The notes under the pieces: generated by a model
The model's database searches: none
Told to the model about the DNA's origin: nothing
Seen by the model: the letters and a program-made list of their open reading frames with translations, nothing else
Shown: in pieces, positions 3,182 to 17,278 of the stretch
How positions within the stretch are numbered: the stretch's first letter is position 1
Layout of the letters: every line of letters begins with the position of its first letter
From: a virus
Taxonomy: Duplodnaviria > Heunggongvirae > Uroviricota > Caudoviricetes
Direction: 5' to 3' (one strand)
Length of the DNA stretch: 26,886 nucleotides
IMG/VR virus record: IMGVR_UViG_3300012942_000037
Span: 77,245 to 104,130 of that record
Position numbers and translations under genes: made by a program

Positions 3182-3475
3182 ATGTCTACTGACCTTTCAA
3201 CTGATACCCTGACCAAGCTGAAGGTGCCGAGCCTTTACAAGGTGATCCTACTGAATGACGATTACACGCCAATGGATTTCGTCATGCAGGTTTTGGAAGA
3301 GATCTTCAATAAGACCGCAGCACAGGCACAGGCACTCTGTATGGAAGTTCATCAGGCAGGCCGTGGTATTGCGGGCATCTACAGCAAGGAAGTGGCTGAG
3401 CAGAAAGTCTACGAGGTCAATACCGTGGCTCGTTCTTATCGTCATCCACTGAAGACGATCGCCGAAGTCGCCTAA
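3182..3475 (+). CDS. clpS: ATP-dependent Clp protease adaptor ClpS
   Basis: YKVILLNDDYTPMDFVMQVL...EVH..GRGIAGIYSKEVAEQKV; N-degron pocket NDD and His retained; SD GAGGAG. Confidence 0.95.
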   Translation: MSTDLSTDTLTKLKVPSLYKVILLNDDYTPMDFVMQVLEEIFNKTAAQAQALCMEVHQAGRGIAGIYSKEVAEQKVYEVNTVARSYRHPLKTIAEVA

Positions 3476-3479
3476 CCTC

Positions 3480-4058
3480 ATGAATATCACCACCCTTGTA
3501 GATTGGCACCTGGGCAATTACCTCACCTATACTGGCCTGGATCCTGAAATCTTCGATCGTCTTCAGCGGCAAATTGCTGAAGAGCAGGATCTTCAGGATC
3601 GCAAGAATATGGATGGCCATGTGACCTCTAGCTTCCTCTTGTTGGATCCTAGCCTGACTAAGGTTCTAATGATCCACCATAAGGGGTTCGATAAGTGGCT
3701 TTGCCCTGGTGGTCATTATGAAGGTAATGTGACACCTCGTAAGAGTGCTCTTCGAGAGCTAACTGAAGAGACTGGCTACCCGGCTGATAAGGTCGCCTAT
3801 TTTGATCATATGGGCTATCTACCCCTAGACGTTGATACTCATGAGATTCCAGCCCGTCCAGATAAGGGTGAGGGTGATCATTGGCACCATGACTTCCTCT
3901 ATTTGGGTGTTCCTCTTCCTGATGAGGAACTGACTCATCAGGAAGAGGAAGTTCATGGTGTGAAGTGGATCAGTATTCGTGATGCGATGGATCTACCCGA
4001 TACGAGGGTTCGTCGCCTCATGGATAAGGTTACCAAGGTTCTTCAGCAATCCAAATAA
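3480..4058 (+). CDS. Nudix hydrolase
   Basis: GHVTSS..LL...VLMIHHKGFDKWLCPGGHYE...ALRELTEETG Nudix box; HWHHDFLY. Confidence 0.9.
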   Translation: MNITTLVDWHLGNYLTYTGLDPEIFDRLQRQIAEEQDLQDRKNMDGHVTSSFLLLDPSLTKVLMIHHKGFDKWLCPGGHYEGNVTPRKSALRELTEETGYPADKVAYFDHMGYLPLDVDTHEIPARPDKGEGDHWHHDFLYLGVPLPDEELTHQEEEVHGVKWISIRDAMDLPDTRVRRLMDKVTKVLQQSK

Positions 4059-4093
4059 TGACAACTAGGTGGCCCACAAGTTAAGTTGGGTCT

Positions 4094-4462
4094 ATGATAG
4101 CATTATGGTTGATGGCTGGCCTTCTGGTCAAGCACTTCATTTTCGATTTTCCACTCCAGACTCAGAAGATGGTTGAGGAGAAAGGGATCTACCTCAAAGA
4201 GGGCGGTCTTGAGCATAGCTACCTTCATGCCTTTGGTACCTTTGTTGTGTTGCTTCTAGCTGGTTTTCAAATGGATATAGCCCTCCTAGCAAGCACGATT
4301 GACTTCTCCTTTCATTACCATATTGACTACTGGAAGAGCAAACTTTGTAAGAAGTTCAAGCTGACACCCGAGAATAAATGGTTCTGGTCAGCTCTTGGTT
4401 TTGATCAACTTCTACATGGTCTGACCTACATTCTTATAATCCATTTTGTGCTATCCAATTAG
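4094..4462 (+). CDS. DUF3307-like membrane protein
   Basis: KHFIFDFPLQT..M...KG ... H..LH ... HYHIDYWK ... LGFDQLLH pattern with hydrophobic segments. Confidence 0.8.
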   Translation: MIALWLMAGLLVKHFIFDFPLQTQKMVEEKGIYLKEGGLEHSYLHAFGTFVVLLLAGFQMDIALLASTIDFSFHYHIDYWKSKLCKKFKLTPENKWFWSALGFDQLLHGLTYILIIHFVLSN

Positions 4463-4560: not shown

Positions 4561-5448
4561 ATGAAAACGAGTAACCACTCGTACGAGCTCAATCTGCTCG
4601 TCAAAAATCGCCCAATCACCGAATATGAACACGAAGGCAACATCTTCGTAGAGGGCCGCAAAGGTTCCGAGTTCGAGGTGGAATTCAAGAATAAGACGAG
4701 TAAACGGGTGCTCGTCGTTCCTAGCGTAGATGGTAAGAGCGTCTTAGACGGTCAGCCAGCTACTCCTGACAGCAAAGGTTACATCGTAGGGCCTTGGGGA
4801 TCAATAAGGATTCCTGGTTGGACCCTTGATGACAGCAATGTCGCAAAGTTCACCTTTGAAGACAAGGAGAAGAGCTACGCTGTACAGATGGCTGACGATG
4901 CTACTCAGGTTCAGAGTGGTGTCATTGGTGTAATGGTCTACAGTGAGGTTGAGAAGCCTAAGCCTGTTGAGCATATTCATCATTATTATCCGCCAGTGAC
5001 CTATCCGCCATCTAATCCATGGAAGCCTTGGTCTCCGTGGGTTCCACGTTATCCAGATCCTTTCTGGTGTGGGTCGTCAATTAACCAACTTGATAGTGTG
5101 CCTCTAAGCACATCCGATACCAAATCGATGATGCGTGGCACGTCTATGAATGCTACTACCCAATCTTCAGCCTCGCTGAATGCTCAGGGCAACGTAGTGA
5201 GCAACGCCCCACCCATTGAGAATGCCTTTGAGATGGGTGCCGGTTTTGGTGAAAAGGCAGATTTCAAGACACGTGAGTCAGAATTCAAACGTGATAAGGT
5301 AGTCGCCACCATGCTCCTCTACTATGATAGCCGCCGCAATCTAGAGAAGCGAGGGATTGAGGTGGTAAAGCGTGAAATTCATGCGACCGCTTTACCGCAG
5401 GCATTCAGTGGTGTTGGTTGTACTCCGCCACCTGGTTGGCAAGGTTAA
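4561..5448 (+). CDS. conserved hypothetical protein (beta-rich N-domain, Pro/Trp-rich linker)
   Basis: Long ORF with SD GGAG and its own promoter (4467-4496); FEVEFKNKTSKRVLVVPSVDGKSVLDG resembles a conserved uncharacterised family. Confidence 0.75.
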   Translation: MKTSNHSYELNLLVKNRPITEYEHEGNIFVEGRKGSEFEVEFKNKTSKRVLVVPSVDGKSVLDGQPATPDSKGYIVGPWGSIRIPGWTLDDSNVAKFTFEDKEKSYAVQMADDATQVQSGVIGVMVYSEVEKPKPVEHIHHYYPPVTYPPSNPWKPWSPWVPRYPDPFWCGSSINQLDSVPLSTSDTKSMMRGTSMNATTQSSASLNAQGNVVSNAPPIENAFEMGAGFGEKADFKTRESEFKRDKVVATMLLYYDSRRNLEKRGIEVVKREIHATALPQAFSGVGCTPPPGWQG

Positions 5449-8147: not shown

Positions 8148-8182
8148 CTAAATATGGGTAGTTAATTGCCTAGAGGTCTGTC

Positions 8183-8626
8183 GTGCGCGCTCGTGAATTA
8201 CTCTTCGAGGATAACCGAAGCAAGATTGAGAAGCTAGAAGAGCTGATTGCTCATCCTGGCACCGAAGAGACCGTTCGCAAGGTAGCACAAAACCGTCTCC
8301 AGCTATTACGGGCTAATATGCCCGTAGTGCCCCGTAGCCGTATCACAGTCGAGACAAACATCCTAGAGGAGCACTTGGATCAGCAATTCCTCACGGGTAT
8401 CACAATGGGGCAGATCTATGAGGGTCTTTGTAGCCTATCTCCAGCACCTAATAGGATTCACTTCCTCCGCCAGGGTCAGATCCAAATGATGGTTCCACCA
8501 CCTATGATGGGTAAGACACGGCAGGAGTATTACGAGGATATCTACAGGGTCTGCCCAGGATCCAAGAATGTCACCGCTCGCATGGTCGAAGGTCAGGGTT
8601 ACTTCTTTGTGATTAGCTACCTCTAA
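8183..8626 (+). CDS. late hypothetical protein with capsid-targeting-like N-terminus (MRARELLFE)
   Basis: CTAAATA at 8148-8154, SD GAGG, GTG start. Confidence 0.75.
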   Translation: MRARELLFEDNRSKIEKLEELIAHPGTEETVRKVAQNRLQLLRANMPVVPRSRITVETNILEEHLDQQFLTGITMGQIYEGLCSLSPAPNRIHFLRQGQIQMMVPPPMMGKTRQEYYEDIYRVCPGSKNVTARMVEGQGYFFVISYL

Positions 8627-8683
8627 TTGGTTGACAGTCTCCTCTACCTATGTTCGTATATAGGTGAAACAAAGGAGAAGTTG

Positions 8684-9328
8684 ATGACCAAGTTCGAGAA
8701 GAAGCTGCTAACCCTCCGCCAGCAGCTCATCGGTGCGCGTTATCATCATGCGCTCGCGGCTCTCGAATTTGCTATCCGTTACCACACAGGAACTCGCAAG
8801 GATGGTAAGACTCCTGAGTTCCAACACCAGGTAGAGATCGCGCTCTTTGCGCTCACTCTCCCCGATCTGATGTATAGGGAGGAGGTCATTGCTACTATCC
8901 TGCTTCACGATGTGCGTGAGGATTATGGCGTCTCGGATGGTGAGATCTCGGATCTCTTTTTCGAAGACTTGGCCTTTGCCCAACGGGTTTGCTCAGCGGT
9001 TTGGAATATGACCAAAGAATTCCGTGGTGTTAAGCGGGATGAGAAAGCCCTCTTTGATGCGATGAGTCAGGATCCTATTGCCTCTATTGCTAAGGGTTGT
9101 GATAGGATGCACAACCTCCAATCCATGGTCGGTGTGTTTAAGCTGGAGAAGCAGAAGGAGTATATCCAGGAGGTCTTCGATCTCTTCCTTCCGATGCTCA
9201 AGAAGGCTCGGCGGCTCTTCCCCCATCAGGTCCATGCTTACGAGCTTCTGAAGTTTGTGCTTCACGCGCAAATAGATTTGATTAAGTTTACATGGCCGAC
9301 TGAATCTGATCTGACCAACGATCAGTAG
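8684..9328 (+). CDS. RelA/SpoT-type HD hydrolase (small alarmone hydrolase/Mesh1-like)
   Basis: HTGTRKDGKTPEFQH, LLHDVRED, MTK and GCDRMHNL motifs are intact; SD AAGGAG before ATG 8684; promoter TTGACA at 8631. Confidence 0.85.
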   Translation: MTKFEKKLLTLRQQLIGARYHHALAALEFAIRYHTGTRKDGKTPEFQHQVEIALFALTLPDLMYREEVIATILLHDVREDYGVSDGEISDLFFEDLAFAQRVCSAVWNMTKEFRGVKRDEKALFDAMSQDPIASIAKGCDRMHNLQSMVGVFKLEKQKEYIQEVFDLFLPMLKKARRLFPHQVHAYELLKFVLHAQIDLIKFTWPTESDLTNDQ

Positions 9329-10295
9329 GCCAATCTATTTCTTCACCATCAAGAACAAGAATCACTTTATAACCGGCTGAAACGGCTGCGTTGAGCTTGA
9401 TCATGTTCTGCTGAAGTAACTCAATATTTTTACCAGTGTGCCACCAGGTCCACTGGCTTTTCACTTCGTACAGGACGTTACCGATTTGGAAGTCGGCCAA
9501 GTATGTTCTCGGTCCATTGAAGTTGTAACTAATGGCTGGTCCTCGTTTGATTGAAGCAATTGAACCAAGTTCAAATTCCTTCTTCTCAATGAAGGCGAGT
9601 TCAAATGATCCTTGGTAGTAAAGATGAGTGTCCTGATATCTCTTACATTCAATACCTTTACCCCAGCCTTTTAGGAAGGCGCGATCAAAACTATTCAAGC
9701 CATTCTCATCTATATCATTGATGCGGGTTTGAACTGCTTTTGCTCTTGATTCGGTATAAGGTATCACACCGAGTTCAACGCACCGTTTGATGTAAGAATC
9801 TTTTGCTCTTCGACCGTAAACTTGAGCGTTGGTTTGGATTTGGTCATCTGATAGTTGAGCCAGATGATCTGACATCCGAAGTTTTGCTCTTTCAAAACTG
9901 TTTAAGCCGTCATCACCTATGATAGATCTAGTTTCTCTCCATTTATCCAAGGCTGTCTCTTCGATGGATTTGCCGTTGATGATAGTTTCTTTCTTTGTTT
10001 TCACCATAGAAACGGCGGCCCTATGATAGCGATCAGGATCCTTAATCTTTGTATCCTTTCTAGTCTGTATGGCTTTCAGACGAGCTACTTCATAGACGTC
10101 TTGGCCTTGATCGTTTACAGATATTCTCTTGGCAGCCACTGATTTTTGGGCTCTGTCTCTATAGAATTCGGCTGATCTCTCTTGACTCTTTTTCATGGCC
10201 GGGCATTTACTGTGGTGACTTGAGCAACAGGCCTTACCATTACCTGAAACTCTGACGGCTTGCTGGCCACAGCCATAATCGCATATTCTTTTCAT
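9288..10295 (-). mobile_element. free-standing putative homing endonuclease, PD-(D/E)XK C-terminal domain
   Basis: N-terminal CDYGCG...CCSSHHSKCP Zn-like motif, internal GLNSF(E/D)RA repeats, C-terminal YQGSFE...YLADF...LYEVKS; opposite strand with its own late promoter (10300-10306). Confidence 0.75.
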
Positions 10296-10305
10296 AACCT
10301 ATTTA

Positions 10306-10383
10306 GCCTACGAGAATATCAAACACATACTGTCGAGCCAAATTGAACTCATTCAGGCCGTTCACCAAGCAACTGAATCCTAG
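10306..10383 (+). pseudogene. orphan duplicate of the HD hydrolase 3' end (AYENIKHILSSQIELIQAVHQATES*)
   Basis: Aligns with the HD C-terminus AYELLKFVLHAQIDLI (9 of 16 identical); no start codon or SD; in-frame stop at 10381-10383. Confidence 0.75.
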
Positions 10384-10399
10384 AATATAGACAGCAAGG

Positions 10400-10428
10400 G
10401 GAGCGTTCTCATACAAAGAGGACGCTCC
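10400..10428 (+). terminator. hairpin after the orphan HD tail (processing site or weak terminator)
   Basis: GGAGCGTTCTC-ATACAAA-GAGGACGCTCC; no U-tract. Confidence 0.4.
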
Positions 10429-10470
10429 AGTCATATCAGCTGAGCCAGATCGAACAAACTGGTAAGGCAT

Positions 10471-11169
10471 ATGACTGATACAACTGATAATCTCATCGAT
10501 CTGGGTGATTACAAAGGGCGGCGTGAATCGCTGAGCTTCTACTCATTCTTGAAGAGTGATTCAACCGCATCTCATTACAAAGCACTCAAAGATGACATCG
10601 AAGGTAAGCTCTCTAGGGGTGAACCAGTTTATGTGACCTTCCATGATGATCGCCGGTCGAATTCAGTAGGTAGGATCAAATCCTGTAACATTCGGTGGGA
10701 AGAGAGTCAGCGGCGCAGATCCTATTGGGATCCGAACAGCACCTGTGATACCTACATCTATGCTGGTATTGATAACATTGAGATAGTCTGGGATGGCCGA
10801 AAGAATAAGGTCAAACCTCGGGCCAATGAACTCACATATCTTCCTGATTGGTCAGGTGGTACACAGTGGTATTGGGAGCAGACAGTCAGGGAGAAGGAAG
10901 ATCCAATCATCGCATATGACCATCTGGGTCAGGAACTCGAGGTAGGCCAGCATGTTTGTTTCGTTCATCGTCAGTATGGTAGAACTTCGATGAAGTTCGG
11001 TACGGTGACTCGATTTACCCGCAAGGGTAGCGTCTTCGTCAAGACAATGAAACTCAGAGATGGTCAGAGAGGCGGCGAGGAACTTAAAGCCCTTTCAATG
11101 GATGATGTCGTAATCGTCAATGATGCTCTGATGAAGCGCTTGACCCTGGCTAAGCTGAAGGCAGTTTGA
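10471..11169 (+). CDS. hypothetical protein, SH3/KOW-like beta barrels; paralog of the next gene
   Basis: Shares RGEP.YV, SVGR, WDGR.NKV and D.LG..L..G with 11172. Confidence 0.8.
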   Translation: MTDTTDNLIDLGDYKGRRESLSFYSFLKSDSTASHYKALKDDIEGKLSRGEPVYVTFHDDRRSNSVGRIKSCNIRWEESQRRRSYWDPNSTCDTYIYAGIDNIEIVWDGRKNKVKPRANELTYLPDWSGGTQWYWEQTVREKEDPIIAYDHLGQELEVGQHVCFVHRQYGRTSMKFGTVTRFTRKGSVFVKTMKLRDGQRGGEELKALSMDDVVIVNDALMKRLTLAKLKAV

Positions 11170-11171
11170 TC

Positions 11172-11891
11172 ATGACCAAGTCAATTCCTCTATCGCGATA
11201 CCAATGGCGCGCTCAATCACCCGTTCCTAATAATTGGGCCGATGAGATGGCTGAAATGGTAAAGGCCTATATCAGGGGTGAACCAATCTTCGTTGGTTTT
11301 GATCCAGTAGCTGAACCAAAGCGAATTGGTTCGGTTGGTCGCCTATACATCAGTTCTGAATGTATTCAGAACCTCCTTTATGGATCCTACAACCATTTTC
11401 GTTACGCACAGAGGGAAACCCGCCCTCTGTTGAAACCTGAAGAATCTCTGATCAAGCCAGAAACTTTCAAAATGATCATCTTGGATGGTCATGTGAAATG
11501 GGATGGTAGATCCAACAAGGTCAACATCGGTTCAGCCTATTCAGTGAATTGGTTGAAAGGTTATGATGCTTCCAAGGGGACAATTTGGAAGTGGGCTAAG
11601 CCCGATGATCCACCTGCTATCACACCTAAGGATAAGCTGGGTCGAGACATCACCAAGGGTGATTTCATCTCCTACATCCTATACCACTTTGACAACAAGT
11701 ACAATGCGGCTGGTATCTACTACGGCAAGGTGACTAAGATTGAGAATGATGGCACGGTCTGGGCCAAGAATATCAAGCTCTCCGAGAAGGACAAAGTGGC
11801 TGAGAAGCGTATTAAGGATAACAGCCTGATCGTCATCATGACTAAGGATCTCATGGATAAACTCATGATGGCACGGCTCTCTATCTTGTAA
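11172..11891 (+). CDS. hypothetical protein, tandem paralog of 10471
   Basis: Same motif series as 10471; ATG 11172 chosen over TTG 11166. Confidence 0.8.
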   Translation: MTKSIPLSRYQWRAQSPVPNNWADEMAEMVKAYIRGEPIFVGFDPVAEPKRIGSVGRLYISSECIQNLLYGSYNHFRYAQRETRPLLKPEESLIKPETFKMIILDGHVKWDGRSNKVNIGSAYSVNWLKGYDASKGTIWKWAKPDDPPAITPKDKLGRDITKGDFISYILYHFDNKYNAAGIYYGKVTKIENDGTVWAKNIKLSEKDKVAEKRIKDNSLIVIMTKDLMDKLMMARLSIL

Positions 11892-17265: not shown

Positions 17266-17278
17266 ATCCATATTTAGT

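Follow-up and report, generated by a model that had tools for sequence, protein, structure and literature searches.

How can a nuclease gene enter the coding sequence of a phage gene and leave that gene whole? On the usual view, the gene for a homing endonuclease persists within another gene only under the cover of an intron or an intein. A locus that raises this question lies in a stretch of 26,886 nucleotides (nt) from a virus of the Caudoviricetes (IMG/VR record IMGVR_UViG_3300012942_000037, positions 77,245 to 104,130), referred to here as the window, which forms the terminal 26.9 kb of a 104-kb viral contig with an estimated completeness of 22%. In the window, a gene for a predicted HD-type alarmone hydrolase (the HD gene; 8684-9328, plus strand) converges on a gene for a predicted endonuclease of 335 amino acids (open reading frame [ORF] 335, ORF335; 9288-10295, minus strand), and a start-less fragment resembling the end of the HD gene lies beyond it at 10306-10383 (plus strand). 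A preliminary description, prepared by a model from the letters and their translations, had listed these features, and every one of them was found where it had been placed.

Our analysis makes it likely that the HD gene was invaded near its 3' end, at the codons for Ala185-Tyr186-Glu187, by a mobile cassette about 1.07 kb long. On the opposite strand the cassette carries a free-standing endonuclease gene, and it also brings a version of the last 27 HD codons that is diverged and foreign. Being in frame, this foreign tail completes the last alpha-helix in the structure model and would thereby keep the hydrolase whole, and the native tail would stay behind, untranslated, just past the putative endonuclease promoter.

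Borders of the insert and origin of the two gene ends

The left copy of a 9-nt junction repeat, GCTTACGAG (9236-9244, plus strand), encodes Ala185-Tyr186-Glu187 and is the last native codon triplet of the HD gene. From there, the HD tail translates as AYELLKFVLHAQIDLIKFTWPTESDLTNDQ up to its stop codon. The right copy, GCCTACGAG (10306-10314), opens the stranded fragment, which comprises 25 codons and a stop at 10381-10383 and translates as AYENIKHILSSQIELIQAVHQATES. That this fragment is in frame and lacks a start had been noted before, and indeed no in-frame start codon was present after the stop codon at 10276. When the region was compared by blastn with ten relatives of the HD gene, the alignment ended exactly at 9244 and restarted exactly at 10306, the two pieces sharing 9 nt in the relatives' own coordinates. 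The insert therefore covers 9245-10305 and is bounded by two copies of the Ala-Tyr-Glu codons. The tail on its inner left side (9245-9328, plus strand; residues 188-214 and the stop) is carried by the cassette. Nine of the first 16 residues are identical between the two tails, in agreement with the preliminary description; their DNA matches at only 30 of 75 nt, which argues against a recent tandem duplication.

The relatives indicate which of the two tails is native. Their genes pass directly from AYE into NIKHIL.SQI.LI.A.H, the sequence of the stranded fragment, as does the gene of the cultured Sinorhizobium phage Phosso. A tail of the type AYENIK(H/W)..Q (H-type), contiguous with the gene, was found in the cassette-free relatives L002 to L005, L007, and L009 to L011 and in Phosso. 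The preliminary description had anticipated this outcome, namely, that phages without the endonuclease would end in the YENIKH type of the remnant. The remnant was closest to the intact tail of L002 (50 of 60 nt), from which its codons differ by seven synonymous changes and one nonsynonymous change. Judged by its sequence, the downstream fragment is the native tail of the HD gene.

The replacement tail, on the other hand, gave no blastn alignment to the H-type relatives beyond 9244. Its closest counterparts are the tails carried by three further cassettes, in L020, L021, and L022, with which it shares 44 to 45 of 60 nt. Over 20 codons, 9 to 10 of the differences from these tails are synonymous and 2 to 4 are nonsynonymous, and since most of them are thus silent, the replacement tails appear to be under selection. 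All invariant residues of the tail (A185, Y186, and Q196) and all nearly invariant ones (E187, K190, L193, and I200) are retained. The guanine-plus-cytosine (GC) content is 42% in the cassette and 52% in the native part of the HD gene. Tails of the replacement kind (F-type) occur naturally, with no insert, in a distant lineage (L008); the replacement tail was therefore probably derived from the HD gene of another phage.

The two codons that follow the junction set the cassettes apart. Every cassette-free allele, the natural F-type included, has Asn-Ile there; Leu-Leu at residues 188-189 is confined to the tails borne by the four cassettes (those of the window, L020, L021, and L022). From the sequence comparison, the change from Asn-Ile to Leu-Leu is a plausible candidate for an immunizing change. 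The junction, at nt 561/562 of the gene, is spanned by the top-ranked 30-nt conservation windows among the cassette-free alleles (starts at gene nt 541-544).

Filled, empty, and decaying sites

The closest homologs of ORF335 (70 to 73% identity) occupy the same site in L020, L021, and L022, where replacement tail, convergent endonuclease gene, and remnant are laid out as in the window. Thus, the cassette is present in the window and in these three loci and absent from L002 to L005 and from L007 to L011. Both the tails of the relatives and the other copies of the cassette support the earlier proposal that a tail replacement had stranded the ancestral gene end. The distribution is patchy: L002, the closest relative of the window in the flanking backbone genes, has no cassette, whereas the far more distant L020 has one. 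The flanking proteins of L020 are 44 to 51% identical to those of the window, and its endonuclease is 72% identical, about as much as those of L021 and L022.

A pair of a filled and an empty site is formed by L022 and L005, which are 91 to 99% identical over 1.5 kb downstream. The remnant in L022 encodes the same 30 residues as the intact tail of L005. In this one pair, the first 45 nt past the junction hold 11 differences, all synonymous, against a background of 8% (p ~8e-4). Excess divergence beside the junction fits a co-conversion tract, as seen in the single pair L022/L005. L022 also exemplifies decay. Its copy (L022:3759-4928) has an endonuclease gene frameshifted near codon 80-85, and, compared with the near-identical L005, the first two-thirds of the HD gene and about 2.9 kb of upstream genes are deleted.

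The remnants bear on whether the downstream fragment might be in use, for example, as an alternative C terminus or as a small peptide. The frame has stayed open in the window, L021, and L022, although openness over 75 nt is uninformative; the copy in L020, another stage of decay, has an in-frame internal stop and a change of the conserved Glu. Its differences from intact tails are mostly synonymous, a pattern that would be expected of sequence that had belonged to functional genes until recently. Given also that it has no in-frame start codon and is separated from the HD stop by 1 kb and a convergent gene, we regard any such use as extremely improbable.

The direction of the change has to be considered as well. 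If the cassette were ancestral, its relatives without it would have lost it by precise deletion between the 9-nt repeats, which would restore the H-type tail. We think this very unlikely: the deeper relatives (L008 to L011, Phosso, and jumbo phages of Ralstonia, Erwinia, and Yersinia) all have an uninterrupted gene, even though the repeat could support such a deletion and elements of this kind are expected to be lost at some stage of their life cycle. With a divergence of 27 to 30%, the cassettes are old, as an ancestral state would have them; however, the replacement tail has only about 40% DNA identity to the remnant and a lower GC content, which points to an origin in another lineage, and natural F-type tails exist without any cassette (L008).

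The invaded gene

The HD gene starts with the ATG at 8684, ends with the stop codon at 9326-9328, and encodes a hybrid protein of 214 amino acids, of which residues 1-187 are native and residues 188-214 are cassette borne. The protein matched Pfam HD_4 (E = 2e-11; 44.3 bits, with a curated cutoff of 27.2), and its NCBIfam match was the RelA/SpoT hydrolase region. The His-Asp motif, H75-D76, is invariant in the alignment. An AF2 model was obtained with a predicted local distance difference test (pLDDT) score of 92, and its best Foldseek match was the small alarmone hydrolase (SAH) of Pseudomonas aeruginosa, PaSAH (6z3o; probability 1.00, target template modeling score 0.82, root mean square deviation 2.6). 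On the grounds of HD_4, the His-Asp motif, and the SAH fold, the gene product is a predicted SpoT-like small alarmone hydrolase.

In this model, the junction between residues 187 and 188 falls in the middle of the last long helix (residues 180-202; pLDDT of ~95), which the replacement tail completes. A tail is therefore needed, as an insertion without a substitute would truncate the fold. Past residue 204 the model is disordered; this part is encoded antisense to the last codons of the endonuclease gene, and its length varies among alleles.

The endonuclease and its fold

ORF335 runs from 10295 to 9288 on the minus strand and overlaps the 3' end of the HD gene by 41 nt (9288-9328). It is present as a single copy in the 104-kb contig. 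Its product has a Cys-rich N terminus, three helical repeats of the "D-x-x-G-L-N" type, and a C-terminal PD-(D/E)XK domain at about residues 214-329. Sixteen homologs share the N-terminal motif C-x-Y-G-C-G...C-C-S...C-P, the helical repeats, and a C-terminal block in which Y-Q-G-x-x-E, D-F, and E-x-K (E232, D268, E277, and K279) are invariant or nearly so. A profile search against PDB sequences yielded nothing credible, and a tblastn search of the phage collection gave just two weak metagenomic matches.

In the predicted structure, the C-terminal domain had pLDDT values of 84 to 96. Exhaustive structural comparison assigned residues 214-329 to the PD-(D/E)XK fold, with TnsA (1t0f_A) as the best match over 126 residues; Vsr, archaeal Hjc, splicing endonucleases, and the I-Bth0305I homing endonuclease domain came next. 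Family models gave a connected result. ORF335 itself had no match to Pfam DUF7487 even at an E value of ≤1, whereas distant homologs pass the cutoffs of Pfam DUF7487 and of Tn7_TnsA-like_N; those that pass the DUF7487 cutoff include P0007, P0010, P0014, and P0015, which are linked to ORF335 at E values of 1e-9 to 1e-28. By predicted fold and motif, ORF335 is thus a PD-(D/E)XK nuclease outside the classical homing families. In calling it a homing endonuclease, the preliminary description had made a guess.

The same family at other gene ends

A profile search with the nuclease family returned about 2,770 cluster representatives. At 78 further viral loci, the same nuclease domain was joined to differing N-terminal modules, among them C2H2-like fingers, other Cys motifs, and a basic "YY..GY" module, and several large phages held two or three copies of the family. 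With its constant nuclease domain, variable DNA-binding parts, and scattered copies, this family resembles those of homing endonucleases.

By manual inspection, three other genes were found to have distant members of the family at their 5' ends, in a mirror image of this design. In a radical-SAM gene (L024:2845-4160 and L026:2933-3950), the native head, stranded but still with its ATG, comes ahead of the endonuclease gene, whose 3' end is overlapped, at the stop, by a replacement head. The stranded head in L024 is of the majority radical-SAM type. No radical-SAM relatives were found in viral contigs, and these were located by protein search and context look-ups; empty sites were among them (L031), with uninterrupted relatives in which two radical-SAM genes abut. 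A gene for an Mre11-like phosphoesterase (L066 and L071:2827-3900) shows the same 5' layout with about 13 codons duplicated. In a clamp-loader gene (L044:3395-4150; L036 and L038, ~3400-4160), the insert follows after just eight codons, and the head is duplicated.

These cases recur without being the norm. An automated scan of 73 further family loci detected a flank duplication above 21 bits in 3, compared with 2 of 250 mismatched control pairs and 3 of 137 displaced windows, the latter owing to tandem paralogs. We therefore rejected the notion that gene-end replacement is the rule for the family, as just 3 of the 73 loci rose above the null; it is a minority habit. A candidate tail in a GroES-like gene (L028) was set aside as weak, since the match covered only a fragment of 9 to 16 residues. 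We suggest, tentatively, that ORF335 may belong to a large, virus-borne homing family of PD-(D/E)XK nucleases, a subset of which repeatedly colonizes gene ends and brings substitute ends along. Such a subset would have at least four gene targets, counting a 3' tail in one and 5' heads in three.

Homing or passive recombination

We infer that the cassette spreads by homing. The nuclease would cut cassette-free alleles at or near the AYE/NIK junction, where nucleotide conservation in the gene is highest. A co-infecting genome that bears the cassette would then serve as the repair template, and the cassette would be copied in with some of its flank. Changes in the two codons after the junction (Asn-Ile to Leu-Leu) and in the sequence following them would make the allele with the cassette immune.

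Two further loci show that the site has been struck more than once. In L006 (4553-5376 of a 435-kb contig), the HD gene ends in a replacement tail of the F-type and a native remnant of 68 codons is present, but the insert has no endonuclease gene, and no trace of one was detected in it by tblastn. Its cargo, placed between the replacement tail and the remnant, is an unrelated 108-codon ORF on the plus strand (ORF108; 4845-5171). A tail can therefore be stranded at this site with no such nuclease present, at least today. L006 may represent a second invasion of this gene end, distinct from the first, or a swap of cargo. In L021 (3626-4000, minus strand of the locus), the endonuclease start and the remnant are separated by a module of about 250 nt that contains an ORF of 55 codons with a ribosome-binding site of its own and is flanked by an imperfect 21-nt repeat of the codons that open the remnant (AYKTVK-stop and AYENIKY). 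Neither ORF108 of L006 nor ORF56 of L021 had a family match. With these two loci, a component of passive recombination stays in play.

Several other results, like L006, weigh against homing by ORF335. Among the four cassettes the divergence is 27 to 30%, and their flanks have diverged to about the same extent. Comparison of the window with L020, L021, and L022 revealed no jump in identity at the cassette borders of the kind that recent transfer would leave, and no close donor for the cassette of the window was found. ORF335 had no match among Pfam, PHROG, or NCBIfam models, and Foldseek retrieved nothing from the PDB at an E value of ≤0.001. The fold link came from the exhaustive aligner only, and its Z score of 7.9 for TnsA is moderate and within the range that the tool warns may reflect only a common arrangement. 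The low yield of the family scan belongs here, too.

Taken to its conclusion, this line of argument would make the locus a product of passive mosaicism. Illegitimate or ordinary recombination between diverged phages would have replaced the gene end, and ORF335 would be a passenger, serving, for example, in the degradation of host DNA or in antidefense. Cassettes that are as diverged as their flanks, the tail replacement with other cargo in L006, and the small-ORF module beside the remnant of L021 all suit this explanation. It does not, however, account for a nuclease family associated with gene-end duplications in four unrelated target genes, nor for insertion into just those 30 nt of the gene that are best conserved. 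Leu-Leu at the junction is a change found with the cassette alone, and the filled and empty pair shows a gradient of divergence at that point. Furthermore, homing enzymes typically combine, as this family does, a nuclease domain that stays constant with DNA-binding N termini that vary. We therefore judge passive mosaicism to be unlikely and favor invasion by a homing cassette.

Signals at the ends of the cassette

The convergent gene ends lie under a hairpin at 9293-9332 (predicted fold of -16 kcal/mol; z = -2.7), an imperfect inverted repeat that had been pointed out in the preliminary description. Its arms are TGGCC (9293-9297) and GGCCA (9328-9332), with an inner pair CTGATC (9306-9311) and GATCAG (9320-9325). 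A hairpin covers both convergent stops in all four cassette loci, the sequence in L020 being different. It is possibly a two-way terminator.

At the other end, the promoter-like motif CTAAATA (10306-10300, minus strand) abuts the right junction, 4 nt before the ATG of the endonuclease gene, and shares one base with the first codon of the remnant; this is the promoter overlap that had been described. The motif stands 4 nt ahead of the endonuclease ATG in all four cassettes. Eight copies occur in the window, with 2.5 expected, and none of 100 shuffles reached eight. They are located at 8148, 1095, 17343, 23391, and 24245 on the plus strand and at 17277, 23984, and 10306 on the minus strand, nearly always within 40 nt upstream of ORF starts and sometimes 3 to 5 nt from the ATG. 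This arrangement fits a phage promoter that would give very short leaders.

Between the stranded tail and the next gene, another hairpin was observed at 10400-10428 (11 pairs and one mismatch). L005 and L022 have a hairpin of different sequence at the equivalent place. It is probably the original terminator of the HD gene, left with the remnant.

Genomic surroundings

The relatives of the HD gene are located on contigs of 416 to 465 kb, and its best named relative, at the protein level, is Phosso, a jumbo phage. The phage of the window is therefore taken to be a jumbo phage as well. A nucleotide search of the phage collection with positions 8400-10700 gave no match to named phages, whose relationship is apparent at the protein level only. 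A search of sequencing runs located the stretch in a single soil metagenome, its probable source, and no RNA data set was listed with it. Among the contigs of that metagenome, no cassette-free variant of the phage was found. A second contig of lower depth in the same metagenome corresponds to 10440-10800 of the window: positions 10440-10469 are shared exactly, after which 203 nt are replaced by 207 nt and the identity to the window is then about 86%. This suggests a co-occurring related phage.

Downstream of the remnant, at 10471-11891, are two adjacent paralogous genes for proteins of 232 and 241 amino acids that are about 27 to 30% identical. Their conserved C-terminal part matches phrog_2251, and relatives with at least three tandem copies exist. 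In L002, an insert of its own of about 250 nt (4659-4871) with a 70-codon ORF, which had no family match, lies between the HD stop and the next gene; it is absent from the window.

Significance and relation to known systems

Besides introns and inteins, the locus would represent a third way in which a selfish nuclease can persist in a phage gene, by bringing a spare gene end. A likely role could thereby be assigned to an uncharacterized, DUF7487-related nuclease family that is common in large phages and other viruses. If the reading of repeated gene-end colonization is true, gene-end replacement would be a general, intron-free route by which selfish nucleases enter the coding sequence of phages, and chimeric phage proteins would arise from it. 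In annotation, short fragments beside small nuclease genes that lack a start or are truncated by a stop should be recorded as insertion scars and not as genes, and phylogenies of phage proteins can be misled where a gene end is chimeric. The set of rare-cutting nucleases would gain a modular PD-(D/E)XK scaffold if the enzyme is site specific.

A phage homing endonuclease gene within coding sequence is reportedly known from phage Aeh1, where mobE, as Friedrich et al. are said to have described in 2007, is inserted in nrdA and the reductase is made from "genes-in-pieces" as two working parts. The host function is kept there as here. Unlike the split nrdA, the HD gene stays in one piece, with the insert supplying its new end.

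The free-standing homing endonucleases of T4-like phages (seg and mob; intronless homing) lie in intergenic regions between conserved genes (PMC2988022). They share with ORF335 the stand-alone nuclease gene in a phage and the sporadic occurrence among relatives. The T4-like enzymes cut a nearby conserved gene and spread with co-conversion of its flank, an activity that ORF335 would have by our account. They differ in nuclease family (GIY-YIG and HNH) and in position, as the cassette lies inside coding sequence and carries a substitute gene end.

The closest parallel in design is found in fungal mitochondria, where mobile ORFs (mORFs) give rise to "gene hybrids" in atp6 of Allomyces macrogynus and in atp6, atp9, cox2, and nad3 of Glomus (PMC3630166 and reference 48 therein). 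In both cases, an endonuclease ORF sits in the 3' part of a host gene, a foreign C terminus is joined in frame, and the native C terminus is stranded downstream, where it remains nearer to the genes of close relatives than the inserted copy is. The system described here belongs to a phage rather than a mitochondrion, and its nuclease is of the PD-(D/E)XK type, not LAGLIDADG or GIY-YIG. Moreover, mORFs are in phase with the host gene, whereas ORF335 is on the opposite strand, converges on and overlaps the new gene end, and has a promoter-like motif of its own.

For ICP1-like phages, a preprint on islands of homing endonuclease genes (HEG-islands) explains small genes beside the endonuclease genes as fragments of neighboring essential (cargo) genes and mentions a PD-(D/E)XK endonuclease that replaces an HNH one (PMC10055350). 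An in-frame replacement end that keeps the gene whole is not described there, and both the gene and the nuclease family differ. TnsA of Tn7 (PDB 1t0f), the best structural match of the C-terminal domain of ORF335, is related further by the distant members that pass the TnsA-like N-terminal model. Unlike TnsA, ORF335 has no TnsA C-terminal domain, no transposon ends, and an N terminus that is Cys-rich and carries repeats. No TnsB or TnsC partner genes were found beside it; its neighbors are the HD gene and the phage paralog family, without transposase domains.

None of the papers found mentions DUF7487, and in this literature no in-frame substitute gene end was found described for a phage, the nearest statements being those on ICP1-like phages (PMC10055350). 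In comparison with these systems, the novelty lies in the nuclease family, in the convergent layout with overlapping genes, and in a collection of sites that includes empty, filled, and decaying ones.

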